64,000 bases of DNA from a virus (IMGVR_UViG_3300035520_000607:59604-123603); one strand, 5' to 3'; counted from the stretch's first letter, positions 2,025 through 62,049 are shown. The notes: generated by a model not told the origin, from the letters alone. Numbers and translations are program-made.

Positions 2025-2531
2025 ATGAGTATATTGAGTCTCGATTTATCCACAAAGAGTTCGGGGTGAGCAATCTTTGAAGGTGATGAATTAAAAAATC
2101 ATGGATGCATAACATCTTCATCAACAGATTTAATTAAGCGTATTCATATAATGATAGATGCTATTGATGAGATATTAAAAAATAATGATATAAAAGAAAT
2201 CATAGTAGAGGAAGTCCGCCCTGAAGGAGGATATGGAGTTGGGAATATAAAAACAATGAAAGCCCTTATGTATCTTCAAGCGGGATTAGAATTTCTCATT
2301 CATGATAATTATAAAAATAAAGTAGAAATTAATTATATATATCCTAGTTCTTGGAGAGCTTCTTGCGGTATTAAAAACGGAAGAGGAATAAAAAGAACCT
2401 CATTAAAAGAGGCAGACATTGCTTTTGTTCAAGAGAAATATGGTATTACTGTAAATGATGATGAGGCGGATGCTATTTGCATTGGCTATGCTCAAAATCA
2501 TATTGAAAGTAACGAAATAAATTGGGGATAA
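2025..2531 (+). CDS. ruvC: RuvC-like Holliday junction resolvase (one in-frame TGA=Trp at 2067-2069)
   Basis: AAGGAGG RBS, then MSILSLDLSTKSSG*AIFE in frame with ORF 2151..2531 (IIVEE, PSSWR, DDEADAICIG); LDxSTxxxGW is the RuvC N-terminal motif. Confidence 0.9.
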
Positions 2532-2561
2532 AAAAAAGAAACTACCATCTAAGGTAGTTTT
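2531..2561. terminator. Bidirectional intrinsic terminator between convergent units
   Basis: A-tract, AAACTACC/GGTAGTTT stem, T-tract. Confidence 0.65.
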
Positions 2562-2588
2562 AATTTATGCATCTGTGCGTAAGATTAT

Positions 2589-2786
2589 TTAATCTTCATC
2601 TTGTTTTTTCATTTCGTTATGTTCTATTATATCAGATTTATGATGATAATAAATAGCTTCTTCAAGATCTTTTATCATATCAATAACTTCTCCTAATTCT
2701 GCAGTATTTATTTTTTGTAGTCCATTTGACATATATTCTTCAACAGAACAAATAAGAGTGTGTTCTATTTTATTTAATTTTTCCAT
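2589..2786 (-). CDS. Hypothetical protein (cassette gene 5)
   Basis: 65 aa, TAATG coupling with upstream gene. Confidence 0.75.
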   Translation of the reverse strand: MEKLNKIEHTLICSVEEYMSNGLQKINTAELGEVIDMIKDLEEAIYYHHKSDIIEHNEMKKQDED

Positions 2787-3205
2787 TAAGCAGTCCTTTC
2801 TACAATTAAAACTACATTTTGAGTATTAATTGTTTGAGTAGTTGTATTTCTTATACTTATTTGGGCGCAACATCCGCATGGAATATCTATAAAGATTGTC
2901 TTATCAACAGCATTATAAGGGCCTGCAGTTGCGGAAGTAGTTATTACTGTTGAACTAAGAATAGGTTCTCCATTTAGAGTAATTGCTAAAGATATTGGGC
3001 CTGCGGTTCCAGTCGTAGGAAGTGCGACGTTTCCACCAAAAGTTATCTTAAATCTAACGCGGCTTTGATTAGTAGCGCCTTTTAAAGTTATTATACCACT
3101 GCCATCGTCGTGGAATATGGAACTGCTCTTGTTGTGAGAAGAAGTTGTAAATAGAACATTTTGATTTGAGTCTATTGATTGAATAGCATTAGCTGTAAAT
3201 TCCAT
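2786..3205 (-). CDS. Beta-rich protein, BclA-C-terminal-like/TNF-fold candidate (cassette gene 4)
   Basis: Start at MEFTAN after GGAGG; Thr-rich beta-strand pattern with PCGCC motif. Confidence 0.6.
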   Translation of the reverse strand: MEFTANAIQSIDSNQNVLFTTSSHNKSSSIFHDDGSGIITLKGATNQSRVRFKITFGGNVALPTTGTAGPISLAITLNGEPILSSTVITTSATAGPYNAVDKTIFIDIPCGCCAQISIRNTTTQTINTQNVVLIVERTA

Positions 3206-3219
3206 GTTTGTTACCTCCA

Positions 3220-4068
3220 TTAGCATCCGCAGCTATTTCCATAAGGATATAAAGAAGAGGCTGGGAATGCAGGAACTGGTGTTGGTTTTAATGCGGAAAT
3301 AAGATAATTATTTTGTCTCTCTTGAGAAGCTGATAATCTTAATTGAGCATTTTCAGTTTCTAATGATGAAATCTTATCATTTACTAAGAAATCTAAAATA
3401 CTTCTTGTGTTACAATTTTGGTTATCAATGATGTCTCTAGTAGTATTTTGAATAGTGTTTACAATGCCGCAAGTGTCTGTTGACATATTATATTTAAGGT
3501 CAGCAATTGCCGCCTTATTATCGCAACAACAGCTTGCTATTTGAGATTGTAAAGCATTTGTATTTTGTAAGTTACCAACAGCTATACCATCAATACTTCT
3601 TTGAATTGCATTAGCATTTTGCATATTTTCAACATTCATTCCATTAATAGATTGTTGTAATGCAAATGTATTTTGCATATTATTAGTATTTACACTATTA
3701 ATTCCTTCTTGAGTATTATAACCTAGAGTACAGACTGCATTGTCGATTCCGCGGAATTCGCTAGTTAAATTATTTTGAAGTCCTGAGAAACCATTTAGCA
3801 TTCCAGTATTCATAGCATAGAATCCATCACATAATCCAGATTGAATTCCTCTTGTACTATTCTCTAATGATTGGAAATTCATATCTTGTGCTAATTCTCC
3901 ACGAGTTAATGCACCATTATTGCCTCCCCAACCATTTCCTCCCCATCCCATAAACATGAATAGGAATAATATGATGATCCACCAAGCGCCATTTCCGCTT
4001 CCGAATCCATCTTGACCTGTTGCCGCAGCTACATCGGCTAAGCTGTAACCATTACCTGAGCTAAACAT
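3220..4068 (-). CDS. Gly/Asn/Cys-rich protein with one TM segment and coiled coil (cassette gene 3)
   Basis: WWIIILFLFMFMGWGGNGWGG, ASCCCD, C-terminal SCGC. Confidence 0.8.
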   Translation of the reverse strand: MFSSGNGYSLADVAAATGQDGFGSGNGAWWIIILFLFMFMGWGGNGWGGNNGALTRGELAQDMNFQSLENSTRGIQSGLCDGFYAMNTGMLNGFSGLQNNLTSEFRGIDNAVCTLGYNTQEGINSVNTNNMQNTFALQQSINGMNVENMQNANAIQRSIDGIAVGNLQNTNALQSQIASCCCDNKAAIADLKYNMSTDTCGIVNTIQNTTRDIIDNQNCNTRSILDFLVNDKISSLETENAQLRLSASQERQNNYLISALKPTPVPAFPASSLYPYGNSCGC

Positions 4069-4102
4069 ATATTTGCTCCTTTCTATTTATTTTTTTTGAA
4101 TT

Positions 4103-8763: not shown

Positions 8764-11523
8764 CTAAGCTGTTCTTTTTCACATATAAACTACTAAATAA
8801 GGTGGCATATTGTTGTGAGCTCCGCTCCCACCAGTGTATTGAGTATAATTTCCATAAGAGGCTGTTACGATAGCTCTATTATAGAATCCAGTATTTCCTT
8901 TATATAAAGAATATCCTGTAGCTTCACTAGCAGAATCATACATATATAATCTATGATTGTGAGATGGCATCTCTGATTCTGATAAGGTATGTGTTGCACT
9001 ACCGCCAGTAGATCCATTTGAATATGAACTACCAGCACCTAATAAGAACCTATTTTGTAATTGTTCTCATGTACCACCAAATAATGATGCAGGACTTGTA
9101 CTATTAACAGACATATATATACTTCCTACTGGATAAACTTGATTAAGTGTTATTATCTTATTTGATACTTCATCTATTTTGGCATCAAGAGTATTATCTC
9201 CTTCTTGTGCTATTGTTCTGTTCTCAGCAATCAACTCTCTAAGAGTATTATCTTCTTCTTCTAATTGATCTTGGAAGACTAATCTTTGAGTTAATGATGA
9301 ATCAGCTAAATAATTAATTGTATAAGTTCCTAAATAATTTTCTTCATAAATCGTTAGAGAACTGGTTTTATTTGATAGAACTATTGAATCATGTTCTAAA
9401 TCATATGTTTTTCAATTACTCGAGGTATAATAAATAACTACTGGATTACCACTTTCATATTTTTCTTTTAAGAAAGTTGAAAAATCTTCTTTATTAGTTA
9501 TAGTATCTGTATAAAATTGAATATATTTGCTGCCGTTTGAATTTATTATTGTGAATTGGTTATTTTCTGATACATTTTTTTCAGAGAATGTAAAATAGTT
9601 ACATATTCCACTTACAGTATACTCCATAGGATCAAAATCATCAGGATAGATTGTATAAATAGAATCATCATCAGCTTTTTCAATAGTCTCTTCTCCAGTT
9701 AAAATTACTTTACCTATTTTCTTAGTTAAAGTGCCATTAATATAAGTGTCATATACATTTCCTATTTTTGCTAATTCAAAATAATCTTGTAAAGGAATCG
9801 AACTTCCATCATATATTTCAAAATCTTCAGAATTAATATCTGACGTATCCAATGTATCGTCTTCATTTAAACAAGTTAGATACAAATAGCCATCTTGACT
9901 AGCTGTAATTGTTTTTAAATTTAAATCATCTTCATTATATAAATATTCTTTATCAGTTGCAGTTCCTGTTTGTGCCACATTAGTACTATATATACCAACT
10001 TCAACTTTTAAACTAAGACTCGTAACTGGATCATATTTAATTGTAAAAGTATCTCCTTCTTTAACTTCTTTCACAAAAGTTGAGACATAATGATTATCTA
10101 ATGTATTATCATCATCAAAATAACTATCAACATATCCATTAAAGAATGTGCTATTCCCAAAATATTGAGGCACTGACATATTAATTTTATTTGAATTAAG
10201 AAATAAAAATCATTTTGAGCGAGGAATCCAAAGTTGATAAGAACTTTTAACTATTTGAAGAGTATATCCTTGTAAAATAGTATCAACACTCGCTCAATAA
10301 GAAACTCTTATATATTTAGTATTTTCAGTCGTTGTAAAAGTATACTTATAAGTTGATGTCTTTTTAGATAATTCAATAAAAGTTTTATCTTTGTCATATT
10401 CACATACTCTAATTTCATTTAACATAGCATAGGTATTGCTCTTGTCGGGAACTGGATAAGTTATAGTGTAGGTCGTCTCTGGTTCTATTTTAATATATTC
10501 TTTTACTAAACAATATTGAGTATTACTAATAGACGTTATTGTTCCATTATCTGCATAATAATATCCTCTTGTTATTATATTTTTAGGATTATAATATTGT
10601 TTAAAACCAGTTACAGTTGTTATTGAAGCTGGAGAATCTATTGTTGGAGTTTTTGATGACGTTTTCATATTTCCATCAATCTCTATATCTAAAATCTCAC
10701 TACTTAAAGGGCTATCAAGCCTTAATCTATAATTAGAAGAACTGTCACCTTGACAAATTGTCTTTGCTGTATTTATTAAACTAGTTTCAGACCAGGTGCC
10801 ATCTTCTTTTAAAAACTTATTTCTATTATGAGTATATTGCAATGCTTCGTCTTTAGGAATGGTAGCAATCATAAAAAAATAATCATCATAAAAAAAGTCT
10901 TCTTCTGAAGAATCTTCCAATTTAGATCCAAACATACTAAATAATATGCTTTTCCCTATCTCATTATTTTTCTCTAAAGTATAGATTATTTGAAATTGCT
11001 CTGAACAAATTGAAGTTGATCGATATCCTGCCGCAGCTTTTATTTTAAGATCAAAATCAAGACCAAGCTCAGCAAGATTAGTCTCATCAGATAATCAATA
11101 ATTATTAAAAATTATATCTTTAAGAGAATCAGATTCATATTGCTCTGGATTTGAAAAATGAACATTTAAAATTTTAGAATTTTCTATTGAATCTCTTAAG
11201 GTTATAAAAGTCTCTGGATTAAGAACATTGCCTGGACATAAAAGAAGAGAACAAGAATCTGTTTTATAAGTTTTTGAAGAATCAATAGAAAAATCTATTC
11301 TTCCATCTGCATTATTCATTTCATCTAATTTAATCTTATCTTCCGCACTCATTAATCCATCAGAAGTTGTAGTAGCATTAGATATTTTATTAACTTCAAT
11401 TCTTTTTTTATCAGCGTCAAAATAAAGTTTTCCATCATCAGTTGTGATTATGAATTGCCCATTTTTTATAGGTAAATTATCCAATTTATCACTAGAACCG
11501 CTGTATGGTTTAAATATTGCCAT
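8764..11523 (-). CDS. Tail fibre/baseplate protein, 919 aa (6 TGA=Trp), C-terminal T4-gp10-like baseplate domain
   Basis: Four track ORFs join in frame; YPVGSIYMSVNSTSPASLFGGT*EQL...HNNMPPYLVVYM*KRTA*. Confidence 0.85.
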
Positions 11524-12096: not shown

Positions 12097-13521
12097 TTAT
12101 CTTTTATAAAATACTCTTTTTCCATTAAAATAAACTTCTGTTAATTCATTATTGTTGAAATATACATTTCCTAATTTAGTATTGTTAAAATATATTATTG
12201 GATATCTTGAAAAGTATCCTGTTATTGGATTAGCAAACATGATATTTTGTCCAGTATAATAAGTATGTTCAATTACCCCTTTTAGTGAGTTACAATTATA
12301 GAATAATAGTATATTATTATAGTCTATAGGAACATGTTTTAATGATCAATTATCTTCACAAAATATATATTCTAATTTACTACAACCGTTAAACATCATA
12401 TAAAAATTAGTTACATTAGAAACATCAAAACTATTTAAATCTAATTCAGTTAAAGAGGAGCAACCACTGAACATCTTTTTCATATTTGTAATATTTGAAG
12501 TATCAAAGTCACTTAAATCTAAAGAAGTTAGACTAGAGCAAGAAGCAAATAAGCTATCCGCACTTCCATATCCCAATCCAGATAACACACTAGTAGTTAA
12601 AGTACTTTTATTTTCACTAATTCAACTTGCTAATGAAGAACAATTATCTTCACCTGAAAAACTGACTGTTCCAGAAGTATCATCACTTAAAGTATAATCA
12701 AAAGTTATAGTTGGTGAAGTAAAGTAACCAGCTGAGGGATTAGCATAGCTAATATCAGTTTTAGATTCATCATACTCAATTGCACCTTTTAAGGAAGAAC
12801 AGTAACCGAACATCTTATCACTATCTATAGTTTGTTCAGATGAAGATCAATCTTTGTTACAATATATTGTTTTTAGATTTTTATTATTTGCAAACATCCT
12901 ATCCATATCTGTTACATTAGAGGTATCAAAATTACTTAAATCTAAAGAGGCTAACTCGCTACACCAACTAAACATATAGCTTATATTAGTAACATTTGAT
13001 GTATCAAAATTACTTAAATCTAGAGAAGCCAAAGATCTACAACTACCAAACATATTATCCATATTGGTAACATTAGAAGTATTAAAACTCCTTAAATCTA
13101 GAGAAGATAATTTACGACAAGTCATAAACATAGAATTCATATTAATTACGTTAGAAGTATCGAAATTGCCTAAATCTAAAGAAGTTAACTTACTACAACC
13201 CTCAAACATAAATGACATGTCTGTTACTCCCCTTGTATCAAAATTACTTAAATCTAATTCAGTAAGTGATGAACAACCAGAGAACATATAACTCATATCT
13301 GTAATTTCTTCTGTTGGAATATAAGGACTTCATTTTATGGTAGTTAAACTACTACAACCATAAAACATTCTTTTTGTACTTATTAAAGTACCCATTCGTT
13401 CAGTTGTTGCTACCCCTGTACTTGAAACATTAGGATTCTTACTATCTGCAGCCGGTGATGATGATGAAACATCCTTAAATCTTTGAATATTAAGATCAAT
13501 ATATAATTTTACTGTTGTCAT
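12097..13521 (-). CDS. DUF285/BspA-like leucine-rich-repeat protein, 474 aa (4 TGA=Trp)
   Basis: Four track ORFs join in frame; tandem 26-aa repeats MFxGCSxLxxLDLSNFDTSNVTNMxx. Confidence 0.88.
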
Positions 13522-13850
13522 TAAATATTTCTCCCATCTCCTATAATTAAATCGCTTAAATCTACTTCAGTTAAAGAAGTGCATCCTTCGAACAAAGATT
13601 CTGCATTTTCTCATGTTGATCATAGTGTCCCACTTATTTTTGCAGTTAATAAGTTTTTTACTCCAATAGTATCTGTAATAAATTCTCTTAAATCGTCAAA
13701 AGAATTGTTAAAAGAGTCTTCAGAACTTTGTGAAGTACCAAATTTTTCATTCCCTGATTCATAGCCTTCCTTTTTTGAAGTATATATAAATTCATAAGAT
13801 GTAGAATACTTAAATCTTTGAATATTAAGATCGACGTATAATTTTATCAC
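13521..13850 (-). CDS. Short paralogue of the LRR protein, 109 aa (2 TGA=Trp)
   Basis: GTG start overlapping upstream TAG; reads through to TAA at 13521-13523 (TAATG overlap); LFEGCTSLTEVDLSD repeat; shares KLY.DLNIQRFK N-terminus. Confidence 0.75.
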
Positions 13851-15629: not shown

Positions 15630-16073
15630 TTATTCTTCTATATTTTCCCAATGAAGATCTGCACTTCCGTCATTCATTAGTAAATAAGAAGATGTTTTTG
15701 TATCATAACGATACATATCAGTTCCATCTACATATAATGCAAATGGGTTCCCTATTTCAGGGAAATCTTGTTTGTCTAAGAAAATTAAATTTGACTCAGA
15801 CCCTACCTGTAGTTGAGTTCATCTACCATCGAAGTAACTCCATATTATTGCAGTCTCTTTGACATAATAGAAACCTTCAACTGGAGATTTTAAATTTCTT
15901 CTTGTTTCTTCATCTACTACAACTATAATAGATACGTATGGAGTTCTTTTATCTGTATCTAAATAAATGACTCTTTCATCTTGAGAGAAAATTAGTTGTC
16001 CAGATACTATTTCAATATCAGATAATTTATCTTTTGTAGTTGCAATAAATTTTATTTTACTTTTATCTGCCAT
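15630..16073 (-). CDS. Tail-fibre-related protein, 147 aa (1 TGA=Trp)
   Basis: YFDGR*TQLQ reads on to LHWENIEE* (TAA 15630). Confidence 0.75.
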
Positions 16074-46796: not shown

Positions 46797-46815
46797 AATT
46801 TTTTTCCTCCTCTAA

Positions 46816-47304
46816 TTATTTAATTCTTTGGATTTTTACAGCAGCTTGTCCGTCAGCTAATGTATAAATTTTAGCTACTTGCCATAACATGTCAGCATCT
46901 TCTGTAGTTTTTGCTAAGATTCCATCTTCACCTGGAGTTAATTTGTCTCCTGCTACGATGTCTTCTTCTTTAATCATGTTAGTTGTGTAAATATCTCCTA
47001 TATTTGTTTTGAATACTCTTGGAACTATAACTCCATCAACAGAATCAGATGCTAACATAGCGAAATCACTATAAGTTTGTTTTCTGTCATCGTATAATTT
47101 GATTTCATTGAAAACTAACATCCATTCTCCTGCACCAGTTAAGTTTACTTCATTATTAGCATAGTCATATTTAACGAATTGACCATTTTCAAGGATTTTA
47201 ATATCACTATTAGCTGGTAATTGAGCATAGATTTGAGCAGTTCTTTGAGCAGATAAATGATTAGGTTCAACTTGTCCGTAACCTGTTCTTTTAATTTGAC
47301 TCAT
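46816..47304 (-). CDS. Capsid decoration/cement protein
   Basis: 162 aa between scaffold and capsid; GYGQVEPN, ENGQF, GDIYTTN. Confidence 0.65.
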   Translation of the reverse strand: MSQIKRTGYGQVEPNHLSAQRTAQIYAQLPANSDIKILENGQFVKYDYANNEVNLTGAGEWMLVFNEIKLYDDRKQTYSDFAMLASDSVDGVIVPRVFKTNIGDIYTTNMIKEEDIVAGDKLTPGEDGILAKTTEDADMLWQVAKIYTLADGQAAVKIQRIK

Positions 47305-47324
47305 ATTGAATATCCTCCTTATTA

Positions 47325-48719: not shown

Positions 48720-48812
48720 GTGTCATCTTTTCCTTTCTTTATAATTTTCTTCCACTTACATTATAATATAATAATTCGTGGTTTTCTATTATTTACTTTT
48801 GTCCTATTTTTA

Positions 48813-50426
48813 TTAACTTTGAGATTCTCTATTTTGCAAAGTTTTTTCTGAAACTGGTTCGCCTTGTGATTCATTAGTAGGTCTTCCTGCTTCAGAATCA
48901 TTTCCGCTTATTTCCCCATGTCTTTCCTTACGGTTTTGGTTAGCTTGTTCAATAGCTGCCGCATTCATTGTACTAGACATCATAGGTGGAATAAATACAT
49001 TAGCTAAGTCTAATATATCATTTTCAAAATATGCATTTGCAAGAATAGAATTTTGAGATTGACCAAGTGCAATTTGTGGTAACATTTTTGAGAAACCTAT
49101 TTGCATTTGTTCTTTATACAATTTAGCCATATCTTTATAATTATAGATAGTCGTTGTTAATATTTGCGCTCTATAATAATATTTTTTGGCTTGATTATTA
49201 AATTTATTTAATAAAAGATTTAAAAAATCTTGAAATTGAAGTAACAAATTATACATTGCCGCCTCATCATTTAAAATAGATTTCTCAAGAGCTATATTTC
49301 CATCAGTATTAAATTGCATTTGTGAAACACCGGCTTCATTATAGATAGCGCGTTCCACTCTTTCAAGATCATCTGAACTAGATGATGATCTATCATCTGA
49401 CATATCCGCAACTTGAACATCTGCAAAAGTAGTTAAGACGTCAATACCAATAGCTTTACCTAGCATATTTACCGCATTATTATGAAGAGCTTGCGCTTCA
49501 TCTACGTCAAATACTAAGTCGCCATTTTTATCAACTGGCATTTTTTGAATTATTATTTTTAATAATTCTTGTTGCATTTTTTTCTTATCTAAACCTTTTG
49601 CTTCATCTAAATCTATAATTGCGGGAATAACAGATATAAATGCTGGAAAGTCTTCTCCATTTAAATTAAATTTAATAACATTCTCAGTTTCTAGTAAATA
49701 CCAACCAGTAGTATCCCCCGCAAATTGAGCAGGTAATTTGCCTTCTTTGTAAAGGACATAACCTTTTTTAAATTCATTAGGGAATAAATTTAACATTTTT
49801 AATCTTTGAGTAGTATCTTTAAAATAGTCATCAAAGAATCTCATATTAAATTCAACAGCTGGACGATTATTTACTGTAAATCTTGAACGACAGTAATTAC
49901 ATGGTAATTCTTGAACTGTCATTTTGTTTGCCTTAGGAATAAGATAACCATAATAACATCCATTCCTAACAACTTTTAATGCAACCTCTCCAAAGAATTG
50001 TTTAGGTTCAAAATTGTCTAAGTAAAGTAACACATCATAAAATCTTTCTAAAGCTTTACTTTCTATCTTTTCAGTCTCGTCTAAGATATAGGGAGTTACC
50101 ATCCAGTCATATTTATATAAATATGCCATATATCTACATAGACGAGAATAAATTCCGCTAGTTTTGTAAAAGAAGTTAGATATTTCTCTCATTTGAGAAT
50201 AATTACAAGTGTTAATAGCTTTTAAAACTTCTTGTTTATCTCCTAACCTTGGATCAATTTTTTTATAAGAGCTTACATTAAGAGTAGCATCTTCCAAAGT
50301 TTTTGCACCAACTTTAATTTTACTAAAGTCAGCCTCTAAAGGACCTACCGTTCTTTCGGTGTCATTCATAGTTATAGAAAAACCTTTTTTCTTAATCTCT
50401 TCTTTTCTGTTTATCAAAATCGACAC
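48813..50426 (-). CDS. Portal protein
   Basis: 537 aa between terminase and protease; AGVSQ..FN, acidic GRP tail; TTGACA-N17-TATACT promoter at about 50451-50479. Confidence 0.78.
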   Translation of the reverse strand: MSILINRKEEIKKKGFSITMNDTERTVGPLEADFSKIKVGAKTLEDATLNVSSYKKIDPRLGDKQEVLKAINTCNYSQMREISNFFYKTSGIYSRLCRYMAYLYKYDWMVTPYILDETEKIESKALERFYDVLLYLDNFEPKQFFGEVALKVVRNGCYYGYLIPKANKMTVQELPCNYCRSRFTVNNRPAVEFNMRFFDDYFKDTTQRLKMLNLFPNEFKKGYVLYKEGKLPAQFAGDTTGWYLLETENVIKFNLNGEDFPAFISVIPAIIDLDEAKGLDKKKMQQELLKIIIQKMPVDKNGDLVFDVDEAQALHNNAVNMLGKAIGIDVLTTFADVQVADMSDDRSSSSSDDLERVERAIYNEAGVSQMQFNTDGNIALEKSILNDEAAMYNLLLQFQDFLNLLLNKFNNQAKKYYYRAQILTTTIYNYKDMAKLYKEQMQIGFSKMLPQIALGQSQNSILANAYFENDILDLANVFIPPMMSSTMNAAAIEQANQNRKERHGEISGNDSEAGRPTNESQGEPVSEKTLQNRESQS

Positions 50427-50493
50427 CTCACCTTTCTTCTTTACTCTTTAAGTATATCATAAAATTTTAGGTTTGTCAAATTTAATTAAATTA

Positions 50494-50862
50494 TTAATAA
50501 CCACCTAAAGCATAATATGCATTCATAATATAATCATAATTAACTCTTCCTTCATCTGTATAAGGAATCGCAATTAAAATAAGATTATGTCTTTTACAAT
50601 ATTCTCTCTTTTTCATATCATTAAATTGTTGTTTTCTCAATCCAGTGTATCCACCAAATTTACTTTTTGCTTCATAATGTTGAACTCCTTGGTATTCTAT
50701 TAAAAAACTCAGTTCTCCATCATCATCAAAAACAGCAAAATCAAATCTGAGCGGGCGCCCGCTAGAACTAACCAAATCAGGAAAACTGTATTCTTCTTGA
50801 AATTCAAAACCAGCTTGTTGAAGAATTTCTTCTATTTTTATTTCTCCACGACTTGCTCTCAT
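50494..50862 (-). CDS. PD-(D/E)XK/Vsr-like endonuclease domain protein
   Basis: SRGE..I...L, LRFDF, IEYQG.QHY, D..KREYC....L..IPY. Confidence 0.8.
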   Translation of the reverse strand: MRASRGEIKIEEILQQAGFEFQEEYSFPDLVSSSGRPLRFDFAVFDDDGELSFLIEYQGVQHYEAKSKFGGYTGLRKQQFNDMKKREYCKRHNLILIAIPYTDEGRVNYDYIMNAYYALGGY

Positions 50863-50969
50863 TCTTTCGCCTCCAATCAGCTAAGACATGATATTTTAAA
50901 ATATTTTTTAAATATTTCTATTGTTATTTTAAATTACTTTTAGCCAAATAAAACAGCTTTGGCCAAAGA

Positions 50970-52715
50970 CTAACTAAAAAACATCATGTCTGCGATACTA
51001 TGTTTCTTTCTCTTCTTTCTTCTATCATCTTCTTGTTTAATATAATATAATCCATATTCAAAAGCAGAAAATTTATCTTTTTTGATTGCTCTTGAAGATT
51101 GCTTTAAAATAATATTTACACCTTCATTTTCTTCTACTAAATTCATCATTTGCTCTTTTAAAATAGTAGTTAAAGTAAATGGAAGTAAATATTCTGCTCT
51201 CTTATCTGCAGTCATACTTTGCCCCATCTTAGTAGCCATTAATTTTACTTTAGCTTGATTTTCATCAATTAAGAATTTAATTTTTCCACTTGAAAGTTGA
51301 GATTGTGCATAAGTATGAGCCTCAGTATTTATTGGCGCATTAGCTTTTATTAAATACATAGCGTCTAATTCAGTATTAGCAGTTTTAAATTGTTTAAACT
51401 CTTGTTCCCAACCTTCATAAGTAGCGCCGCACACTCCAAAATTAGGTAAAACTTCTCCAGATTCAGGATCTATTTGATCAGTTACCATAAAATCTACTAA
51501 TCCACTACCTAAACCATTGGCATCTATAACAACAGCTTTAGCCTTGTATCTATAAAATAATTTTTTAATATTTAAAGCTTGAATACCAAAATGCTCAGCA
51601 TCTCAAGTATAAATATTAACAAGAGTCTTCAATGAGGATCCTTGAGCTTGCGGAGTTACTTTAAATACACAACACTCTGTAGTACAATCTTTACGTCCTA
51701 CATCGACTCCAAGAACATAATAAGCTCCTTGAGAGGATCTTCCGCTATATTCATATTCTGGTTGTAATAACACTCTATGTTTATCAAATTTTTCAGCTGA
51801 GAAGAAAGCGTTTTCCGCATCTCCGCTTCATTCAGATTCATACTCTCTTGAAAATGAAGCATCATTATAAGTACCATCTAATTTTAAATTAGTAATAAAG
51901 TTTTTAGGTTGTAAGCCTTCAAGAACTGGAATTCTCCAAGTTCCGCCTAATACAATAGCCTCATTAGGGTCTATTATTTGTTGAATAAGTATTTGAACTA
52001 ATTTACTGTATGCAAAACTATTTTTCCAACCTGCAGTAGTAATGTAAATTTGACTTTTATTAGCTACTTCTTCTTCATGTCTTGTTCCATCTGAAAGTCT
52101 TCTATCTACAACCATTGTTGGTATGATAACTTCGTTCAATAGTGTTTGATCTATTAAGATACACTCTTCCATTAAACCCCCAGTTGCACGTTTACCACGA
52201 GATGATTGTTGTGCGGCCATGATATCTAATTTACTACCATTCTTAAATAAATATTCAACTTCATTTTTTGAAGATTTAGAAGCACCTCTTGTTCAGTCAA
52301 TTTCATTTTTTAAACCAGGAATTAATTTACATAACTCTTCTGCTTTTTCTTTTGCTATTCCCGCAGCTTGCTCTTTTCCACCTGTTGTTACGAAGAAATG
52401 TGAACCTGGGTATAATATACATTTAAGCATTAAAACTAATACAGATAAGAATGATTTAGAATAACCACGAGGAAACGTAGCATAAATATATCTATGACGC
52501 ATTGCCGCCCTTAAAAATATTCTTTGATATGAATGTAAATGGAAATTCTCTGGATTATCTCCGCATAGAAATTCAACAAAAATATCTGGATATTCCCTTC
52601 AAAAAGCCACGTAATTTCTTAATACAGGTATTTGCGCCTTAATACGTTCTTCTGATAATCCAGTCTTCTTATTGGTTGAAGATAAAGACAATTCCATTAA
52701 ATTAGCTAAGGACAT
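50970..52715 (-). CDS. terL: Terminase large subunit, 581 aa (TGA=Trp at 52599, 52293, 51828, 51603)
   Basis: AF*REYPD, Walker A PRGYSKS, RGKRA..GLMEE, YITTAG, REYESE*, RNaseH-like VLGVDVGR, IDANGLG, KDKFSAF. Confidence 0.92.
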
Positions 52716-53910
52716 TTTCTTCATCCTCTTTTCTTTGCTCTTCTACACTAGCATAAAATTCTTCATAATCTTTATCTACAAGTTGATCCTCATCCATCTC
52801 TTCAAGAGACATATCATCTGTTTCACCCATCTCTTTTTGAATTTGAATCTTCTTTAAGGCATCTTCTATTTGTTGACCAAAACCTAAATCTTCTGTAACT
52901 AATTTATTAACATAAGTATTCATATCTTTTAAAGTTAAATCGATTTTATCTTGAGGAATATCTGTTGCATATCTAGGGATAAATCCTTCTCTCTCACACA
53001 TAGCAACTAATTCTCCAACAGAGTCTACAAAATCATTCTTTTGCTCTTTGTTTTGAGCGGCAGTAAACTTTGCGGATTTTCTTAGTGATTCAGACACTTT
53101 AGATAATTTTTGATAGCCTTCAATATCTCCATTGTCAAGACATTGATTCATTTTTAAATTAGTTTTACAAATTAATATTAAAGTATTAGTAGTATCCGCA
53201 TCTTGAATATCAAAAGAATTAGTCATATTAGTATAATCTTTCTCTAGCATAATCCATTCGTCAGGTTTATACATAGCTCCCCACTTCATAGCTAAAGAAA
53301 TTTTATCTTCTTGAGTAAGTTCGCTTATTAAATCATTCATTTGATTTTGAACAATTATTGTGCTCTCATTATAATATTTATCTTGCGGAAATGCTTGTCC
53401 TTGATTTAAAACTCTAGATATACCTATTTCCGCATTTTGCGTTTCCGCACTTATTAAAGTTTTATATTCAGCTTCGCCTATTTCTCCATTTTCATACTTT
53501 TGTTTAATCTCTTCTTCAAAAGCAACTCTCTCTTCAGTTTGAGCTACTTGAGTTTTCTTTCTTTGTTCATTTAGGCGATCAGTATCTGCCCAACCATATT
53601 GTTTTCCAGTAACTTTATCTCTAAACTGATTTAATTTCATTTTAGAAAGGTATTTTCCAAAGACAGAAGTTCCATTTAAATTAGGATTTTTAGCAAAAGC
53701 TTTATCTCTTATTGAGTTCCATTCTTCAGGAAGATAAGGGACATCCATTTTTTCTAATAACCATAAAAATGTATTAGGATCAAAATTATCAATGTGCATT
53801 GTCAAACAGTTTTTACACATCTCAGTTTTGTCTCCATTTTTATAAGTGTAAAATTTGGTATCCGCATCCATCATTCTTCCACATTTTTGACATAATTTTT
53901 GTTCTGCCAT
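52702..53910 (-). CDS. Zn-finger protein upstream of terL (terminase small subunit candidate)
   Basis: CQKC...CKNC N-terminus; overlaps terL start. Confidence 0.55.
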   Translation of the reverse strand: MAEQKLCQKCGRMMDADTKFYTYKNGDKTEMCKNCLTMHIDNFDPNTFLWLLEKMDVPYLPEEWNSIRDKAFAKNPNLNGTSVFGKYLSKMKLNQFRDKVTGKQYGWADTDRLNEQRKKTQVAQTEERVAFEEEIKQKYENGEIGEAEYKTLISAETQNAEIGISRVLNQGQAFPQDKYYNESTIIVQNQMNDLISELTQEDKISLAMKWGAMYKPDEWIMLEKDYTNMTNSFDIQDADTTNTLILICKTNLKMNQCLDNGDIEGYQKLSKVSESLRKSAKFTAAQNKEQKNDFVDSVGELVAMCEREGFIPRYATDIPQDKIDLTLKDMNTYVNKLVTEDLGFGQQIEDALKKIQIQKEMGETDDMSLEEMDEDQLVDKDYEEFYASVEEQRKEDEENVLS

Positions 53911-53927
53911 TTTCCGCTACCTCCTTA

Positions 53928-54998
53928 CTATTTTTTATTTCTACATTCTTTACAAATGCTATACCAGCCATCTTTTGATGTACTATTCTTTGAAAAGAAA
54001 CGATTAGTAGCCAATTTTACTTTTCCGCATCTAGAGCATTGTTTCCAATTTCCTTTTTCTTTATAAGTAAAATGCCAATCTAAATAATCTTCTTTTGCTT
54101 GTTCCGCAAGTAATTTAGGTATTTTATTTCTCCATAATGATGATAAATATTCAACAGAGTGTCTAACTCCAAATTCTCTATCTAATAGATCTTGGATTTC
54201 CGCATTAGAACGTCCATCAGTTTTATAAAGCAATAACTTATAATAAAGCGGATATGCTTCTTTTAAAGTCTCTTCAATTAAATTATCTAAATCTAACATT
54301 GTGTAATATAAATCACTGCTAAATTTTCCATAAGAGTCTTCTTTTAATGCCGCATAATTACGCAATAGCGCAGAAATATGAGTCCAATTAAAAAATGATA
54401 TAATGCCATCGCTAATTGGCTCACCAAATTCATTTATTTCTATATGTTCAGTTAAATCTACTTTTGATAATCCTTTAAAAGGATTTCCAGTAGGGTTAGA
54501 TGTTAAAGGTTGTTTTATTGTATTTTTTATAGTATATTGTTCTTGATGCATTTCTATTAGTTGTTTTTTTAATAAAAAACGCTTTTTACCTGTTGCTTTT
54601 TGTTCCATTTTCTCAACTGCGGAAATACTATCCTTTAAAGCGCGAAGGTCTGCCATTGCCGCCAAATCCGCATCTGTAATTGATACCTTAGGAGTTAAAA
54701 GTACATTTTTATCATTTATTATTAAATTATATATTCCATCTTCGCCATTCTCAAATTTACTTACTAATCCTTGATATGAAGTTTCTCTTTTATTTATTGT
54801 TATCATTCTATTGTCTGTAATAATCTCTTTTTTCTTTTTCTCTTCAGGAGTCATTGCAGTTACAATATAATTTGCTAGATATTCTAAATATTTTTTATTT
54901 TTAAATTGTTCTTGTGGTAAGTTAGATACAAAATCAGCTCTTTCTTTTGCTGTCTTTAATGTAAAATCTAATTTTATATTTATAGATTCTTGTTGCAT
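53928..54998 (-). CDS. Hypothetical protein with HTH-like segment and C-terminal CxxC Zn finger
   Basis: GRSNAEIQDLL HTH-like; CSRC...CKEC. Confidence 0.65.
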   Translation of the reverse strand: MQQESINIKLDFTLKTAKERADFVSNLPQEQFKNKKYLEYLANYIVTAMTPEEKKKKEIITDNRMITINKRETSYQGLVSKFENGEDGIYNLIINDKNVLLTPKVSITDADLAAMADLRALKDSISAVEKMEQKATGKKRFLLKKQLIEMHQEQYTIKNTIKQPLTSNPTGNPFKGLSKVDLTEHIEINEFGEPISDGIISFFNWTHISALLRNYAALKEDSYGKFSSDLYYTMLDLDNLIEETLKEAYPLYYKLLLYKTDGRSNAEIQDLLDREFGVRHSVEYLSSLWRNKIPKLLAEQAKEDYLDWHFTYKEKGNWKQCSRCGKVKLATNRFFSKNSTSKDGWYSICKECRNKK

Positions 54999-55040
54999 TC
55001 TGCTTACTCCTTTCTACTCTTTTTGTTTTTCTACATTTAC

Positions 55041-55119
55041 ATTATAGCACAAAAAATTTACAATGTCAAGGGTAGATTTGAAAAGTTTTATTGATTACTA
55101 TAAAAATTTTTTATATAAT
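55041..55119. promoter_or_regulatory. Divergent sigma-70 promoters at the strand switch
   Basis: Minus TTGACA-N17-TATAAT (55041-55069, with TG); plus TTGATT-N17-TATAAT (55091-55119). Confidence 0.7.
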
Positions 55120-55162
55120 ATTATTGTAATTAAAAAGAAAAAATATAAAAAAGAAAAAGTGA

Positions 55163-55978
55163 TTGAATATGGATATAATGAGAAGAGCAAAAGAACATTA
55201 TAATTACCTGATTTCCGCAGGTTATGACGTCATTTGCACTTGTCTGCAAGGAAGTCAAAACTATGGATTAGATGAATATAGTCAAGAGTATCAAAGTGAT
55301 GTAGATACTAAAAGTATTATTGCGCCATCTCTTGACGATATGATTAATGCATCGCCGCCTATTAGTACAGTTGAAATTTTAGAAAACAATGAGCATGCTG
55401 AAGTGAAGGATATCCGCATAATGTTTGAAATGTTTAAAAAAATGAATATTAGTTACATTGAGCTATTGTATTCGGATTATATTATTATTAATCCTAAATG
55501 GGAGGATTATATAATTGAGCTATTCGGCATGCGAGACCGCATTTCCGCATTAAATAAAAATCAACTTTTAAGATGTATTGCGGGAATGGCTTATGAAAAG
55601 GAGAAGGCGCTATGTCATCCGTATCCTGGGATTATTGATAAAATTGAAAAATATGGATATGATGGCAAACAATTAAGTCACATAATTAGATTATTTATTT
55701 TTATGAACAAATATGTTAATGGTTTACCTATTAAAGAATGTTATAAAATAAAAACTGAAGAAGCAAGAACTATGTTAATAAATTTAAAGAAACAATTAGA
55801 TTGGCTTAGTAAGGAAGATGCGGTTAAGCTCTCTAGAGGCTTTGTCGAGGGTATTAAGGTTTTAAAGGATGCTAATCTATTGCCGCACGATGAAGTAGAT
55901 AAAGAAGTTATTGAGATTTTAAATAAAATTAAATATGATATAATAAAAGAAAAAATGCGCAGAGCACTATCGTGCTAA
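55163..55978 (+). CDS. Pol-beta-superfamily nucleotidyltransferase (RlaP/Nuc-transf type)
   Basis: GSQNYGL...SDVD catalytic motif; YDGKQLSHIIRL. Confidence 0.8.
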   Translation: MNMDIMRRAKEHYNYLISAGYDVICTCLQGSQNYGLDEYSQEYQSDVDTKSIIAPSLDDMINASPPISTVEILENNEHAEVKDIRIMFEMFKKMNISYIELLYSDYIIINPKWEDYIIELFGMRDRISALNKNQLLRCIAGMAYEKEKALCHPYPGIIDKIEKYGYDGKQLSHIIRLFIFMNKYVNGLPIKECYKIKTEEARTMLINLKKQLDWLSKEDAVKLSRGFVEGIKVLKDANLLPHDEVDKEVIEILNKIKYDIIKEKMRRALSC

Positions 55979-55996
55979 AGAAAGAAGGAATTTAAT

Positions 55997-56152
55997 ATGG
56001 CAAGAAGAAAGTCGCTAAGAATAAGTACACATTTATTACCTACACCTAAAAAGATAGTTAAGAGAGGGATTTACGAAATGGTTTCCGCCGCAACAGGTGG
56101 AAATACTAAACCTAGAGATTATGGGAAAAGAATAAGAGAAGGGAAATATTAG
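55997..56152 (+). CDS. Small basic protein, 51 aa (not in track)
   Basis: AAGGA RBS, MARRKSLRISTH...EGKY*. Confidence 0.55.
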   Translation: MARRKSLRISTHLLPTPKKIVKRGIYEMVSAATGGNTKPRDYGKRIREGKY

Positions 56153-57525: not shown

Positions 57526-58006
57526 AGTTCTTTTTCTCTTGACAGAAACTTTACATGTAAAGTAAAGGAATGCGGAAATAGCTTTCAGCGTCGCATCTGC
57601 GAACATGATGCGACGAATTTAGGAACAAAAATACTTTACGCTTTTTTGACATGTAAAATGTATGTCAATTTACATCTGCTTGACATCCTAAAATGACACC
57701 GACTTGACATGTAAAGGAAATGTAAAGAAGATGATCAGTCAATTGACATGTAAATAGATTGTAAAGCAAACAATTTGTTCGATTTCATTTTTATTTTTGT
57801 TTTTTATTAGAAGTCATGCAAGACCTTTTGACACACGGGGCGGCGTTGCCGCATCTGTCAACCTGATGTAAAAGAGTAGCGTAAACCTGATGTAAGCCGA
57901 ACAATTTGTTCGATAAAAATAAAATTAAAAATTTTTTTAAAAAAATGTTGACATTTCTAGTTAGATTTGGTAGTATATAATTGTAATAAGAAAGGAATTG
58001 ATAGTT

Positions 58007-59584: not shown

Positions 59585-59749
59585 ATGGCAAATAAAAAAA
59601 GAAATACTAATATGAAGAAAGTTGTAGTTGATAAAAATGCTACTCAATTTATGAGAACAGCAGCAAACCTTGCAAGAAAAGGCAAAACTAATAAAAAACT
59701 ACATGGAAGAAATGCTAACCCAAAAGCAGCAAAATATGCTATCAACTAG
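59585..59749 (+). CDS. Highly basic 54-aa protein (not in track)
   Basis: MANKKRNTNMKKVVVDKNATQFMRTAANLARKGKTNKKLHGRNANPKAAKYAIN*; followed by hairpin/T-tract. Confidence 0.65.
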   Translation: MANKKRNTNMKKVVVDKNATQFMRTAANLARKGKTNKKLHGRNANPKAAKYAIN

Positions 59750-60216
59750 CATATTTTTTTATGGATGTCAAGTTTACATTTCCTTTACATTTAGATCTGA
59801 GTGTCGCGTAGTTGTAGGTCACGCGACGTTTTTGGGAGGATTAGATCTTTACAAAATATTTACATGTAAAACTGATGTCAATAGACAGATCCTTGACATC
59901 CCATAATTACACTGGACACACGCGGCGGCGTTGCTATTTCCGCCATCGACCAAGGGGACGCCGCAATATTATACCACATTGCTATTGAGTTTGTCAATAC
60001 TAAAAATGCAATTTTTTAATAAAATTTACATTTTCCTAAAATTAAAAATTTTTAAAAAAAGTGTTGACTTTTTTATGTAGATTTAGTAGTATATAATTGT
60101 ATTAAGAAAGAGACAACAAAATAAAAAAAATATTAAAAAAATTAAAAAAAAATGTTGACTTTTACTTAATAGTTTGTTATCATAATAATGTAATAAGAAA
60201 GAGAGAGATAAAATTT

Positions 60217-60960
60217 ATGATTAAAAAAATTGATTTAAAAAATGAGAGATATTTAATGTTTATAGACACTGAAACAATAGGTAGTCTATTCGTTAAGGAA
60301 AGTGTTCTACCTTTTGAAATAGGTATGAAAGTATATGACACTGAACAAAAGAAAGTTGTTAAAGAAAAAAGTTATCTAGTAAGAAAATTCTTTAATAATA
60401 AATATGTAATGTTATCTACATTTAGTGCTACAAAATATCCTAACTATTTTGAAAAACTAGACACTGATAAAAGATATAAAACATATAGTGTTAAAGATAT
60501 TGCTACTGATATTGAAAAAATAATATCAAGATATAATATAAAGGTTATGGTAGCACATAATGGAAACTTTGATAAAACTGCTATGGCAAGATTATTTGAA
60601 GAGTTTGGTACTGCTAACCCATTTGAAAATATAGATTTACTAGATACTATGGAATTATCAAAAGTAATAACATTTAGTAAAGATTATACTGATTATTGTA
60701 TAGCACATAAAGATAGATTAAATTCTATGAAAGAAAGTTGTTTTATCACTAATAGTGGTAGAGTAAGAACAACAGCACAGGCTATTTATTGCTATATCAC
60801 TGATAATGCTGATTTTGAGGAGGCACATACTGGACTTGAAGATATAGATATTGAAATATGTATATACCAAACAAGCATGGACTTATTAGGAAACACAATA
60901 GTAAATCTAAATACTAGTCCTAGTTGGAAAGATTACTCAAAAGTAATAGAAGAAGATTAA
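60217..60960 (+). CDS. DEDDh 3'-5' exonuclease
   Basis: FIDTET (ExoI), AHNGNFD (ExoII), AHTGLED (ExoIII). Confidence 0.88.
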   Translation: MIKKIDLKNERYLMFIDTETIGSLFVKESVLPFEIGMKVYDTEQKKVVKEKSYLVRKFFNNKYVMLSTFSATKYPNYFEKLDTDKRYKTYSVKDIATDIEKIISRYNIKVMVAHNGNFDKTAMARLFEEFGTANPFENIDLLDTMELSKVITFSKDYTDYCIAHKDRLNSMKESCFITNSGRVRTTAQAIYCYITDNADFEEAHTGLEDIDIEICIYQTSMDLLGNTIVNLNTSPSWKDYSKVIEED

Positions 60961-61088
60961 AAAATCTTCTTCTACATACTAAAAAAGTGTTGACAAAAAA
61001 TAATAAAAATGCTATCATAATAATGTAATAAAGGTTAAGCCAAAACCTTTATATATAAAATAAAAAATAAGAAATGGAGTTGATTAAA

Positions 61089-61472
61089 ATGGCACAAACA
61101 AAATTAACAAAGGTAAACAAAATTAATATGTTACTAGAAATGAGTGAGGTACAAGCAAATCTTGAATTAGTAGAATTTCTTGAAAATGAAAAAGCATTAA
61201 TTCAAAAGAAAAATGCTAACAAAACTGCTAAAAAATCTAATGAAGATACAATAGTATGTGATATGTTAGTTGAGGAGTTAGCAAAAGTTGGACATCCTTG
61301 CACTATTACTGAATTAATGACATCTAGTGAAGTTATTCAAAACTATGTATTAGAAAATGGCAAACCATTAACTAATCAAAAAATCACTGCAATGTTTAAA
61401 TCTATACTAGATATAAGAGTAGTAAAAATTCCTAAAGGAAAATCTAATCTATACAGTGTAAAAGAAGTGTAA
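61089..61472 (+). CDS. Winged-helix-like DNA-binding protein, paralogue A
   Basis: MAQTKLTK..., TITELM, LTNQKITA; similar to 63430..63810. Confidence 0.65.
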   Translation: MAQTKLTKVNKINMLLEMSEVQANLELVEFLENEKALIQKKNANKTAKKSNEDTIVCDMLVEELAKVGHPCTITELMTSSEVIQNYVLENGKPLTNQKITAMFKSILDIRVVKIPKGKSNLYSVKEV

Positions 61473-61537
61473 ATTAACACTTCTTTTTTTTATGTAAAAA
61501 AAGTATTGACAAGCACCCCTAAATGTGATATAATGGT

Positions 61538-61569
61538 CGTGTCGCATCTGACTGCTGCGACACGTTTTT
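61538..61569 (+). terminator. GC-rich hairpin plus T-tract immediately after a promoter
   Basis: CGTGTCGCA-N9-TGCGACACG-TTTTT starting 4 nt after TATAAT. Confidence 0.65.
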
Positions 61570-61857
61570 AGAATAACAATAGCCCTAAAAAATAATGCGG
61601 CAAGCAAAATGAGTTAAAAAAATTTTAGCAATTTTCCTAAAAATGAACACTTTATCGTAAAAAAGATATTTTAGCTTTAAAATAGAAAATAATCTACAAA
61701 ATCAATAGCAAAAAGAAAATGAGAGACTTAAAAACAATGCGGAAAGTGGCTTTAATGCCCGTTAACCGACACCGCCGCATCTATTAATTGCCTTTCCGCA
61801 AATTTTTTGTTATAATTATAATGTAATAAATAATAGAATAGAAAGGAAAATAGAACG

Positions 61858-62049
61858 ATGAAGATTTATGTCTTAGTTACTTCTTCAGTAATTACTGGCG
61901 TTTACTCTTCTCTTGACTTACTCACCGCTGACCTTACTACAAAATTTAAATCCGAGTCACTAGATAGAGTAGAAGAATGAGATTTAGATAAAGGTTTTGT
62001 AAAAAATGTTAATGTATCTAAACAAACTATTATTACTGTTGAAGATTAA
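61858..62049 (+). CDS. Small protein, 63 aa (TGA=Trp at 61978)
   Basis: AAAGGA RBS; MKIYVLV..GVYSS...RVEE*DLDKG...ED*. Confidence 0.6.

Follow-up and report, generated by a model that had tools for sequence, protein, structure and literature searches.

A ~124-kb phage of low-GC Gram-positive bacteria is the source of the window, a stretch of 64,000 nucleotides that forms its late arm with the virion and packaging genes. The phage genome has a GC content of 29.6%. Genes were called with TAA and TAG as sole stops (code 4). The features are listed in Table 1. In the late block on the minus strand (2786-54998), 14 of the 37 genes harbor a total of 54 in-frame TGAs. The plus strand adds one TGA in the RuvC-like gene, the sole plus-strand gene of the window with a well-supported TGA, and up to three more occur in the doubtful small ORFs 57551-57769, 59628-59906 and 63267-63680. 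The window total of 55-58 in-frame TGAs across 15-18 ORFs agrees with the original prediction, made from this DNA alone, of more than 50 TGAs in at least 16 genes on both strands. The motifs it quoted, namely SSG-TGA-AIF, AF-TGA-REYPD, REYESE-TGA, FGGT-TGA-EQ and VSGK-TGA-ELIG of the tail-fibre-like protein, were all found in place, as was its internal control: the baseplate protein has YM-TGA-KRTA (TGA at 8779-8781), and its paralogue, the 866-aa tail protein, has YVWKRTA at the C-terminus with TGG at 21163-21165.

Table 1. Features of the late arm and the phage tRNA(UCA), with numbers of in-frame TGA and TGG codons. Positions refer to the window unless stated otherwise.
Feature	Position	Strand	Evidence and likeness	TGA	TGG
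RuvC-like Holliday junction resolvase	2025-2531	+	PHROG 827/159, E 2e-19	1 (2067-2069, codon 15)	
Tail protein, 672 aa	5008-7026	-	PHROG 32343/1887	3	4
Baseplate protein with Gp10_C domain, 919 aa	8764-11523	-	Pfam PF21939, E 4e-22	6	2
Small late protein, 155 aa	11538-12005	-	G001 and G003 also have TGA at this column	1	0
DUF285/leucine-rich-repeat tail protein, 508 aa	12097-13623	-	Pfam PF03382, E 1e-54	5	2
Late protein, 147 aa	15630-16073	-		1	2
Tail-fibre-like protein, 854 aa	16798-19362	-	PHROG 26292	3	3
Late protein, 137 aa	19773-20186	-		1 (three codons ahead of TAG stop)	
Tail protein, 866 aa	21148-23748	-	PHROG 372	7	10
Giant tail/virion protein, 2349 aa	23765-30814	-	Syntenic with H1_55 of Enterococcus phage H1	6	25
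Giant tail (tape-measure-like) protein, 2718 aa	30872-39028	-	Syntenic with H1_60 ("tail protein") of Enterococcus phage H1	12	18
Late protein, 360 aa	39701-40783	-	No family match in PHROG or Pfam	3	1
Head module (virion structural protein; capsid-like, 45771-46796; portal, 48813-50426)	40842-50862	-	PHROG 2729, 4088, 3313, 2739	2	18
Large terminase, 584 aa	50970-52724	-	PHROG 2	4 (codons 42, 144, 299, 374)	3
402-aa protein and sigma-factor-like protein, head of minus-strand block	52702-54998	-	PHROG 3314, 5767	0	10
Phage tRNA(UCA), 95 nt	Genome 14765-14859, outside the window, 44,745 bases before its start	-	ARAGORN; Rfam tRNA, 48.2 bits		

Calling genes with TGA as sense rather than stop, a check proposed earlier, showed that the frames run through the TGAs, and the longest stop-to-stop ORF increased from 726 to 2745 aa. 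Genome-wide, 87 in-frame TGAs were counted, some of them within spurious or doubtful ORFs. All 123 code-4 calls of the genome end at TAA (91) or TAG (32), which bears out what had been claimed for the gene ends; such ends follow from the calling method, yet the stop was reached in every call without a long extension. Of about 30 genes in the replication block, at most one is terminated by TGA, the one credible case being a Mom-like gene. TGA terminators in cultured relatives amount to 8 of 77 in Enterococcus phage H1 and 9 of 41 in Geobacillus E3 (10-22% of long ORFs). In the 137-aa late protein the TGA lies so close to the TAG stop that it may be read as sense or act as a genuine stop.

To determine the amino acid meaning of TGA, codons were compared with those of about 80 related phage loci, of four whole genomes of relatives and of two cultured phages with the standard code; T4 gp10 was compared as well. 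Approximately two thirds of the aligned cells of relatives at TGA columns contain TGG or TGA. In 80 related loci of the large terminase, TGG and TGA occur 45 and 29 times at codon 42, 45 and 25 times at codon 144, and 53 and 27 times at codon 299, while codon 374 is mostly Tyr; three of these four columns are TGG in the cultured phages. Both TGA columns in the Gp10_C domain of the baseplate protein correspond to Trp in T4 gp10 (PDB 2FKK) and are likewise TGA in the relatives G001 and G004. For the 672-aa tail protein, relatives have either TGG or TGA in each of the three TGA columns, with TGG at codon 34 in a cultured standard-code phage, and codon 267 of the tail-fibre-like protein is TGG in G003. 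The RuvC column is more variable, with TGG in G001, TGA in G003 and G004, Phe in G005 and Tyr in cultured phages, and the TGA columns of the DUF285 tail protein align poorly with relatives.

Genome-wide, the 82 cells at TGA columns that are neither TGA, stop nor gap comprise 38 TGG, followed by Leu (7), Phe (6), Tyr (5), Gly (4) and Ser (1), without any Cys. Homologues at these columns, whose alignment had been suggested as a check, thus show mostly TGG or TGA and rarely Gly or Ser. As a control, the TGG columns of this phage read TGG in 467 of 682 aligned cells. In the cultured standard-code phages, 11 TGA columns could be aligned, of which 4 have TGG. Only the 40 of 87 genomic TGAs that are alignable to relatives were compared; the claim that Trp is conserved at the TGAs therefore stands for about half of the sites, the others lying in stretches too divergent for alignment. 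Together, these comparisons support the reading of TGA as a sense codon for Trp in this phage, and on this reading about one third of the Trp residues in late (tail, baseplate and packaging) genes are written TGA. In one ORF located within the DNA-ligase insertion, TGA is aligned with Leu of relatives; this ORF resembles an endonuclease gene in decay more than an instance of recoding.

The TGAs are unevenly distributed over the genome. Core replication genes (gyrase, DnaB, RecJ, PolIII alpha, NrdD and others) contain no TGA but 90 TGG in 8.4k codons, whereas the late block contains 52-54 TGA and 115 TGG (late block versus whole plus-strand block, Fisher p = 4e-7). Within the late genes, TGA is less frequent in head than in tail genes (Fisher p = 0.02). 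The TGA-free set consists of the core replication genes, the sigma-like gene and most head genes, and the TGA-rich set of tail, baseplate, terminase and nuclease genes. Lacking TGA, the 402-aa and sigma-like genes would be translatable while the code is still unchanged. The partition has a few exceptions: two homing endonucleases, an NrdG-like gene and RuvC are early-arm genes with TGA. A similar asymmetry is found in relatives: TGA/TGG counts in replication versus late genes are 0/96 versus 8/78 in G001, 13/81 versus 60/31 in G003 and 17/65 versus 50/56 in G004. In the relative G005, in which TAG is recoded, the replication genes contain 5 TAG and the late genes 76.

The original prediction also held that neither a suppressor tRNA nor a release factor lies in the window. 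This is correct for the window, in which no tRNA was found, but misleading for the genome as a whole, which encodes a tRNA(UCA) in a cluster that also contains tRNA-Trp(CCA) at genome position 15869-15943. The search of the remaining genome that it had called for was successful only in this respect: no match to the RF-1 family or to a class Ib synthetase (TrpRS) was obtained in this phage genome or in complete relatives, although, with a contig completeness of 83% (CheckV), either gene could sit in the missing part. The tRNA(UCA) possesses A1-U72, G73, an encoded CCA end, a cloverleaf with 7/5 acceptor/T arms and the anticodon loop CUUCAAA. Its body is of the Trp type and shows identity features of tRNA-Trp. 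At the position of the variable arm it carries a second 5-bp hairpin with the loop CUCCAAA, which is conserved and copies the CCA anticodon loop. Comparison of 11 distinct homologues showed 98.6% pairing over the five helices, with 14 pairs in which both sides have changed. In many relatives the gene contains a group I intron, placed between U34 and C35, that hides it from ARAGORN.

As no TrpRS was found in the phage or in complete relatives, the host TrpRS would have to accept tRNA(UCA). A tentative explanation, to which we give somewhat less than even odds, is that the two anticodon-type arms allow the phage to rely on the host enzyme: the real UCA arm would read UGA, and the second arm may be a decoy that restores the charging lost by the C34-to-U change. 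If this is true, the group I intron at U34/C35 in relatives would mean that the code switch is gated by splicing as well as by transcription.

The original prediction had offered a code-4 host and a code imposed by the phage as the two possibilities. The partition of the genes, the TAG-recoding relatives and the phage's own tRNA(UCA) make the latter most likely. As a whole, the data are best explained by a phage-imposed recoding of TGA to Trp in late genes within a host that uses the standard code (probability about 0.8). Early genes would be translated by the unmodified host system. Phage tRNA(UCA), charged by host TrpRS, would then accumulate and outcompete RF2 at UGA, so that the TGA-bearing late genes become translatable. 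Following the model of Borges et al., recoding may serve to time, or to lock, the synthesis of late, low-copy and DNA-cutting proteins.

UGA is read as Trp in Mycoplasmatales and some uncultivated Bacilli, which lack RF2. A host of this kind, with the phage simply following its code and the TGA-free replication genes reflecting recent recombination or codon-usage history, would fit the AT-rich genome, the near absence of TGA as a stop anywhere in it and the DUF285 of a tail protein, a domain first described in Mycoplasma. It would also fit the metagenome-assembled genomes (MAGs) with which related phage contigs are binned, namely small-genome low-GC Bacilli, Erysipelotrichaceae and Anaeroplasmatales. 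However, AT pressure under code 4 should favour TGA, and all 90 Trp codons of the core replication genes are TGG. The recurrence of the early/late asymmetry in relatives and the presence of a tRNA(UCA) on the phage itself also argue against a code-4 host, as do sister phages that recode TAG instead; no bacterial host with TAG as a sense codon is known to us. Moreover, a full-length, intact prfB is present in four of the five MAGs that hold related contigs, a link which is weak in that it depends on the binning of phage contigs. A spacer-type DNA search of 400 genomes yielded noisy short AT-rich matches only. Overall, a code-4 host appears improbable.

That TGA specifies another residue, i.e. 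Gly (code 25), Ser, Cys or selenocysteine, is very unlikely. ARAGORN in bacterial mode labels the tRNA(UCA) as tRNA-SeC, but its best Rfam match is an ordinary tRNA, not tRNA-Sec, and its acceptor/T arms are 7/5 instead of 8/5. Selenocysteine decoding was rejected on these grounds and on the number of sites, as 55 sites in 15 genes without selenoprotein context do not resemble the sparse, SECIS-dependent use of this residue. A long extra arm combined with G73, as in tRNA-Ser, would suit Ser, since the long extra arm is the main identity element for SerRS (PMC9976931). The 7/5 structure with A1-U72 and G73 counts against residues other than Trp. It also has to be considered that TGG and TGA differ by one transition, so that TGA would arise at Trp codons whatever its meaning. 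Nevertheless, TGA is found here at columns in which cultured phages and T4 gp10 invariably have Trp, and Gly, Ser and Cys account for only five of the 82 informative cells. Code 25, known from phages of Absconditabacteria/Gracilibacteria, was discarded at 4 Gly versus 38 TGG. Errors of assembly or sequencing, or pseudogenes of a defective phage, have a negligible chance of explaining the TGAs: TGA recurs in the same columns in independent assemblies of dozens of relatives (e.g. 27-29 loci at terminase columns 42 and 299), TGG to TGA is the only change seen, without any frameshift, and the sites are located in essential genes such as those for the terminase, baseplate and tape-measure-like protein.

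Phage-imposed recoding of this type resembles that of the Agate phages, which are TGA-recoded, ~127 kb in size and predicted to infect Firmicutes (Borges et al., bioRxiv 10.1101/2021.08.26.457843; Nat Microbiol 2022). Shared traits are the genome size, the use of TGA for Trp in structural genes with the DNA replication machinery spared, the almost complete loss of TGA as a terminator, close relatives with standard code, TGA or TAG recoding, standard-looking relatives that already carry tRNA(UCA), and a TGA-rich, intron-borne homing endonuclease within an early gene. This match rests on described traits and not on placement in a large-terminase tree. Among the points of difference, no TGA-rich lysis cassette was found in the 64-kb window, and the tRNA(UCA) of this phage bears an additional anticodon-like arm, its gene being split by a group I intron in many relatives. 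A suppressor tRNA was reported for only 35% of TGA-recoded genomes, and its structure was not described (bioRxiv 10.1101/2021.08.26.457843).

The ~136-kb gut phage phAss-1 of the proposed Phassvirus (OQ749652; Int J Mol Sci 2023, PMC10607447) belongs to the same broad assemblage (TerL 43% identical). It shares late-gene stop recoding, phage suppressor tRNAs and the absence of a phage aminoacyl-tRNA synthetase, but recodes TAG (code 15), is distant in sequence and has predicted hosts among Eubacteriales. The nearest cultured relatives, Enterococcus phage H1/EF1 and Geobacillus virus E3 (TerL 44% identical), have the same gene order, with PolIII alpha followed by the resolvase on one strand and the tail-to-terminase block on the other, but use the standard code without in-frame stops and with TGA as a normal terminator. 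In the code-4 Mycoplasmatales/Entomoplasmatales and their phages, UGA is likewise Trp and read by a tRNA-Trp with anticodon UCA; there, however, the code is cellular (RF2 lost) and applies to all genes, whereas here it concerns a subset of genes and the tRNA is phage-borne. The Jade phages and the AP1 TrpRS:tRNA pair (PMC12636597) also employ a phage tRNA(UCA) inserting Trp at UGA, and suppression in E. coli is limited by competition with RF2. Their "code-change" operons bring a TrpRS and sometimes RF1, unlike this phage and its complete relatives, in which neither was found. The phage is thus a clear fresh example of the late-gene recoding already described for gut and rumen phages and not a new phenomenon; its unusual part is the structure of the suppressor tRNA.

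Genes were called with TAA and TAG as the sole stop codons. The late block then contains 54 in-frame TGAs in 14 of its 37 genes, one more lies in the RuvC gene and at most three in doubtful small ORFs. When TGA is treated as a sense codon, the longest open frame increases from 726 to 2745 amino acids. The original prediction, that frames continue through TGA because it encodes tryptophan, proved accurate in its observations: every motif and coordinate quoted was recovered, including the paralogue control of YM-TGA-KRTA at window 8779-8781 versus YVWKRTA, with TGG, at 21163-21165. The bases at +4 and -1 of the in-frame TGAs were inspected for a special context and are the same as at TGG codons; thus nothing points to read-through that depends on context. 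Reassignment of the other stop codons was rejected. With TAG as sense, coverage by ORFs of at least 100 amino acids rises only from 79% to 83% and no long gene is lengthened. With TAA as sense it reaches 95%, which is no surprise once an AT-rich sequence loses its most frequent stop, but the longest ORF remains 726 amino acids under either reassignment. Table 11 splits the terminase, baseplate, fibre and 2,300-2,700-amino-acid tail proteins into about 70 fragments, and annotation pipelines need a mixed code for this phage.

The virus record is linear, has a length of 123,603 bp and a GC content of 29.6%, and is 83% complete according to CheckV. Among cultured phages, Enterococcus phage H1/EF1 and Geobacillus virus E3 are closest to it; they share the gene order and have a large terminase (TerL) of 44% identity. 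The GC skew changes sign where the minus-strand late block meets the plus-strand region, and this point may be a replication origin, a terminus or the boundary of the early region.

Features of the phage genome and of related loci (genome coordinates, C1, L001 and L002, refer to parts outside the window; L087 to L186 are fetched loci of relatives)
Feature	Position	Strand	Evidence or detail
Late module	window ~2786-54998	minus	PHROG and Pfam searches
Large terminase	window 50970-52724	minus	PHROG/Pfam
Portal	window 48813-50426	minus	PHROG/Pfam
Tail protein, DUF285 / BspA-type leucine-rich repeats	window 12097-13623	minus	PF03382, E 1e-54
Two giant tail proteins	late module	minus	2349 and 2718 aa
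Baseplate protein with Gp10_C domain	late module	minus	PHROG/Pfam
Head proteins and fibre-like proteins	late module	minus	PHROG/Pfam
Sigma-factor-like gene	upstream end of late module	minus	
RuvC-like resolvase	in window	plus	PHROG/Pfam
GC skew sign change	window ~54000-56000		
Small ORFs	window 55-64 kb	plus	low coding density
Gyrase B and A, NAD-dependent ligase, DnaB, RecJ, PolIII alpha, NrdD, RNA ligase, Mom-like protein	replication arm, before window		
tRNA cluster	genome 14.5-18.3 kb		includes tRNA-Trp(CCA)
tRNA(UCA)	genome 14765-14859		95 nt
OLE RNA match	genome C1:16697-16935 (L001:16697-16935)	minus	RF01071; 105.6 bits, E 9e-28; model positions 283-595 of 616
tmRNA	genome C1:17793-18232 (L001)	minus	51.8 bits (gathering score 47)
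tmRNA of relative G003	L087:2569-2925		96.1 bits
Split NAD-dependent DNA ligase gene	genome C1:35781-38832 (L002:15781-18832)		N-terminal ~75 codons 35781-36000; main ORF 36892-38832; ~0.9 kb insertion between
TGA stops rejected as gene ends	genome 35781-36023 and 36011-36262		inside ligase insertion
Candidate terminal TGA stops	genome 33804-34937 (Mom-like gene) and 20411-20944		
Interrupted tRNA(UCA) genes of relatives	L148:1898-2338; L162 (G004 C1:~106277-106980); L160 (G003); ~30 of L125-L186		

The amino acid inserted at TGA was assessed from aligned relatives. Via TerL, whose database homologues have 581 amino acids, 80 related loci were obtained from viral contigs and their codons were read under the alignment. 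At the first three TerL TGA columns the relatives carry TGG or TGA (45 and 29, 45 and 25, 53 and 27, respectively), and at the fourth they mostly have tyrosine. A genome-wide tally drew on four related genomes in full and two cultured genomes in part, after each TGA of the query had been replaced by X against bias. The 82 informative cells at TGA columns included TGG in 38, Leu in 7, Phe in 6, Tyr in 5, Gly in 4 and Ser in 1, and in a further 26 cells the relative has TGA as well; at control columns, where the query has TGG, 467 of 682 cells were TGG. Cultured phages with the standard code carry TGG at three TerL TGA columns and at one of a tail protein, and T4 gp10 (PDB 2FKK) has tryptophan at the two Gp10_C-domain columns that are TGA here. 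This evidence supports tryptophan as the meaning of TGA. Glycine, serine, cysteine and selenocysteine were rejected on the tally, the cultured phages and T4 gp10. Assembly error is ruled out because the same columns carry TGA in independent assemblies.

The distribution of TGA across gene classes is bimodal. The core replication genes contain no TGA and 90 TGG in 8.4k codons, whereas the late block has 52-54 TGA against 115 TGG (Fisher p = 4e-7 for the late block compared with the entire plus-strand block). The late block is itself uneven: in window 40842-54998, TGA is scarce in the head genes (2/18, TGA/TGG) and in the sigma-like gene with the one next to it (0/10), in contrast to the tail, baseplate and fibre genes (48/79; window 5008-40783) and TerL (4/3), with p = 0.0004 for the pooled comparison (Fisher). 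The few TGAs of the early arm are located in two homing-endonuclease genes, an NrdG-like gene and RuvC. As a terminator TGA is almost unused, whereas the cultured relatives end 10-22% of their long ORFs with it; the Mom-like gene and one further ORF may have a true terminal TGA stop. Two other TGA stops lie inside the insertion in the split DNA ligase gene and are no gene ends. The Vsr-like homing-endonuclease ORFs of this insertion contain several TGAs; one is positioned at a column of conserved leucine in relatives, and this endonuclease copy may therefore be decaying.

The early/late asymmetry recurs in relatives with varying intensity. Replication and late genes contain 13/81 and 60/31 TGA/TGG in the TGA-recoded genome G003, 17/65 and 50/56 in G004, and 0/96 and 8/78 in the lightly recoded G001. 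TerL of G001 lacks TGA, yet tRNA(UCA) is present along with the eight TGAs in other late genes, and recoding in this genome seems to be at an early stage. In the sister lineage G005 it is TAG that is recoded (5 in replication genes versus 76 in late genes), and a tRNA(CUA) is present. Among the 80 loci (L005-L084), TerL contains in-frame TGA in 48 and in-frame TAG in 10, and is free of both in the other 22. Thus one phage family occurs in three coding states, standard, TGA and TAG.

The window harbors no tRNA. The original prediction of no suppressor tRNA therefore stands for the window, but not for the genome, in which a tRNA(UCA) is part of the tRNA cluster. No RF-1 family protein or class Ib synthetase was found in this 83%-complete genome or in G001-G005, of which G001 and G004 are complete (terminally repeated). 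In the absence of a phage TrpRS, the suppressor tRNA must be charged by the host enzyme, and as the phage encodes no TrpRS and no release factor, the code switch appears to rest wholly on one odd tRNA. This tRNA(UCA) has A1-U72 and G73, which are bacterial Trp determinants (review PMC9976931), and its anticodon loop, CUUCAAA, is normal. An extra arm is placed between the anticodon and T arms: a 5-bp hairpin with the 7-nt loop CUCCAAA, identical to the loop that carries the anticodon in tRNA-Trp(CCA). By pattern scan this two-arm design was detected in many phage contigs of 95-175 kb. A comparison of 11 distinct intact copies showed 98.6% pairing over the five helices, two-sided changes at 14 pairs, four of the five extra-arm pairs among them, and an extra-arm loop, UCCAAA, that is invariant. 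No paper describing such a design was found in the literature searched.

The tRNA(UCA) gene of many relatives, G003 and G004 among them, is interrupted by 345-700 nt inserted between U34 and C35, and ARAGORN misses these genes. The insertions are either ORF-less (~345-360 nt) or ORF-bearing (~530-710 nt), and their 3' end is conserved. The ORF-less class shows a weak match to group I introns (RF00028, 18.5 bits, E 0.02) with the core motifs present; the ORF-bearing insertions of G003 and G004 gave no Rfam match to this intron at E <= 0.01. Suppressor tRNAs were detected in only 35% of TGA-recoded genomes (Borges et al., bioRxiv 10.1101/2021.08.26.457843), a rate which hidden interrupted genes may explain. 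The tRNA cluster also contains a tmRNA that is absent from the ARAGORN output, and, adjoining tRNA-Gly(TCC), a strong match to OLE RNA, whose partial presence in a phage is unexpected, its known carriers being anaerobic and extremophilic Firmicutes.

The original prediction left two options, a host using code 4 or a code imposed by the phage. The latter is favored here with a probability of roughly 80-85%, based on the partition between genes and the TAG-recoded sisters. A phage that merely follows the TGA=Trp code of its host is improbable, as this explains neither replication genes with TGG only in a genome of 30% GC nor sisters that recode TAG. Related phage contigs were binned in MAGs of Erysipelotrichaceae, Bacilli and Anaeroplasmatales, and four of five MAGs checked have an intact prfB; linked by contig binning, this is a weak hint toward a phage-imposed code. 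Window 36000-55999 was also searched for spacer-type DNA matches against 401 genomes from the order of one candidate-host MAG. Hundreds of short AT-rich matches were obtained among these genomes, none of them a convincing spacer match, the exceptions among the matches being the phage-like contigs G006, G162 and G190. The DUF285 tail protein is a possible receptor-binding protein and a weak hint to the host; such repeats are common in Mollicutes and other Firmicutes.

This lineage, a clean case whose near relatives keep the standard code or recode TGA or TAG, with 8 to 60 TGAs in aligned late genes, is suited to studying how a code change begins and spreads. The published phage phAss-1, another relative, recodes TAG. 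Likened by description and on traits only, the phage displays every one of the compared traits of the TGA-recoded Agate phages (Borges et al.). Recoding of late genes with TGA as tryptophan is itself an already known phenomenon, of which this phage is a well-supported further example. The non-ordinary part of the finding is the suppressor tRNA outside the window, its most testable and least understood component, and two-arm tRNAs are of possible interest for genetic-code-expansion work.
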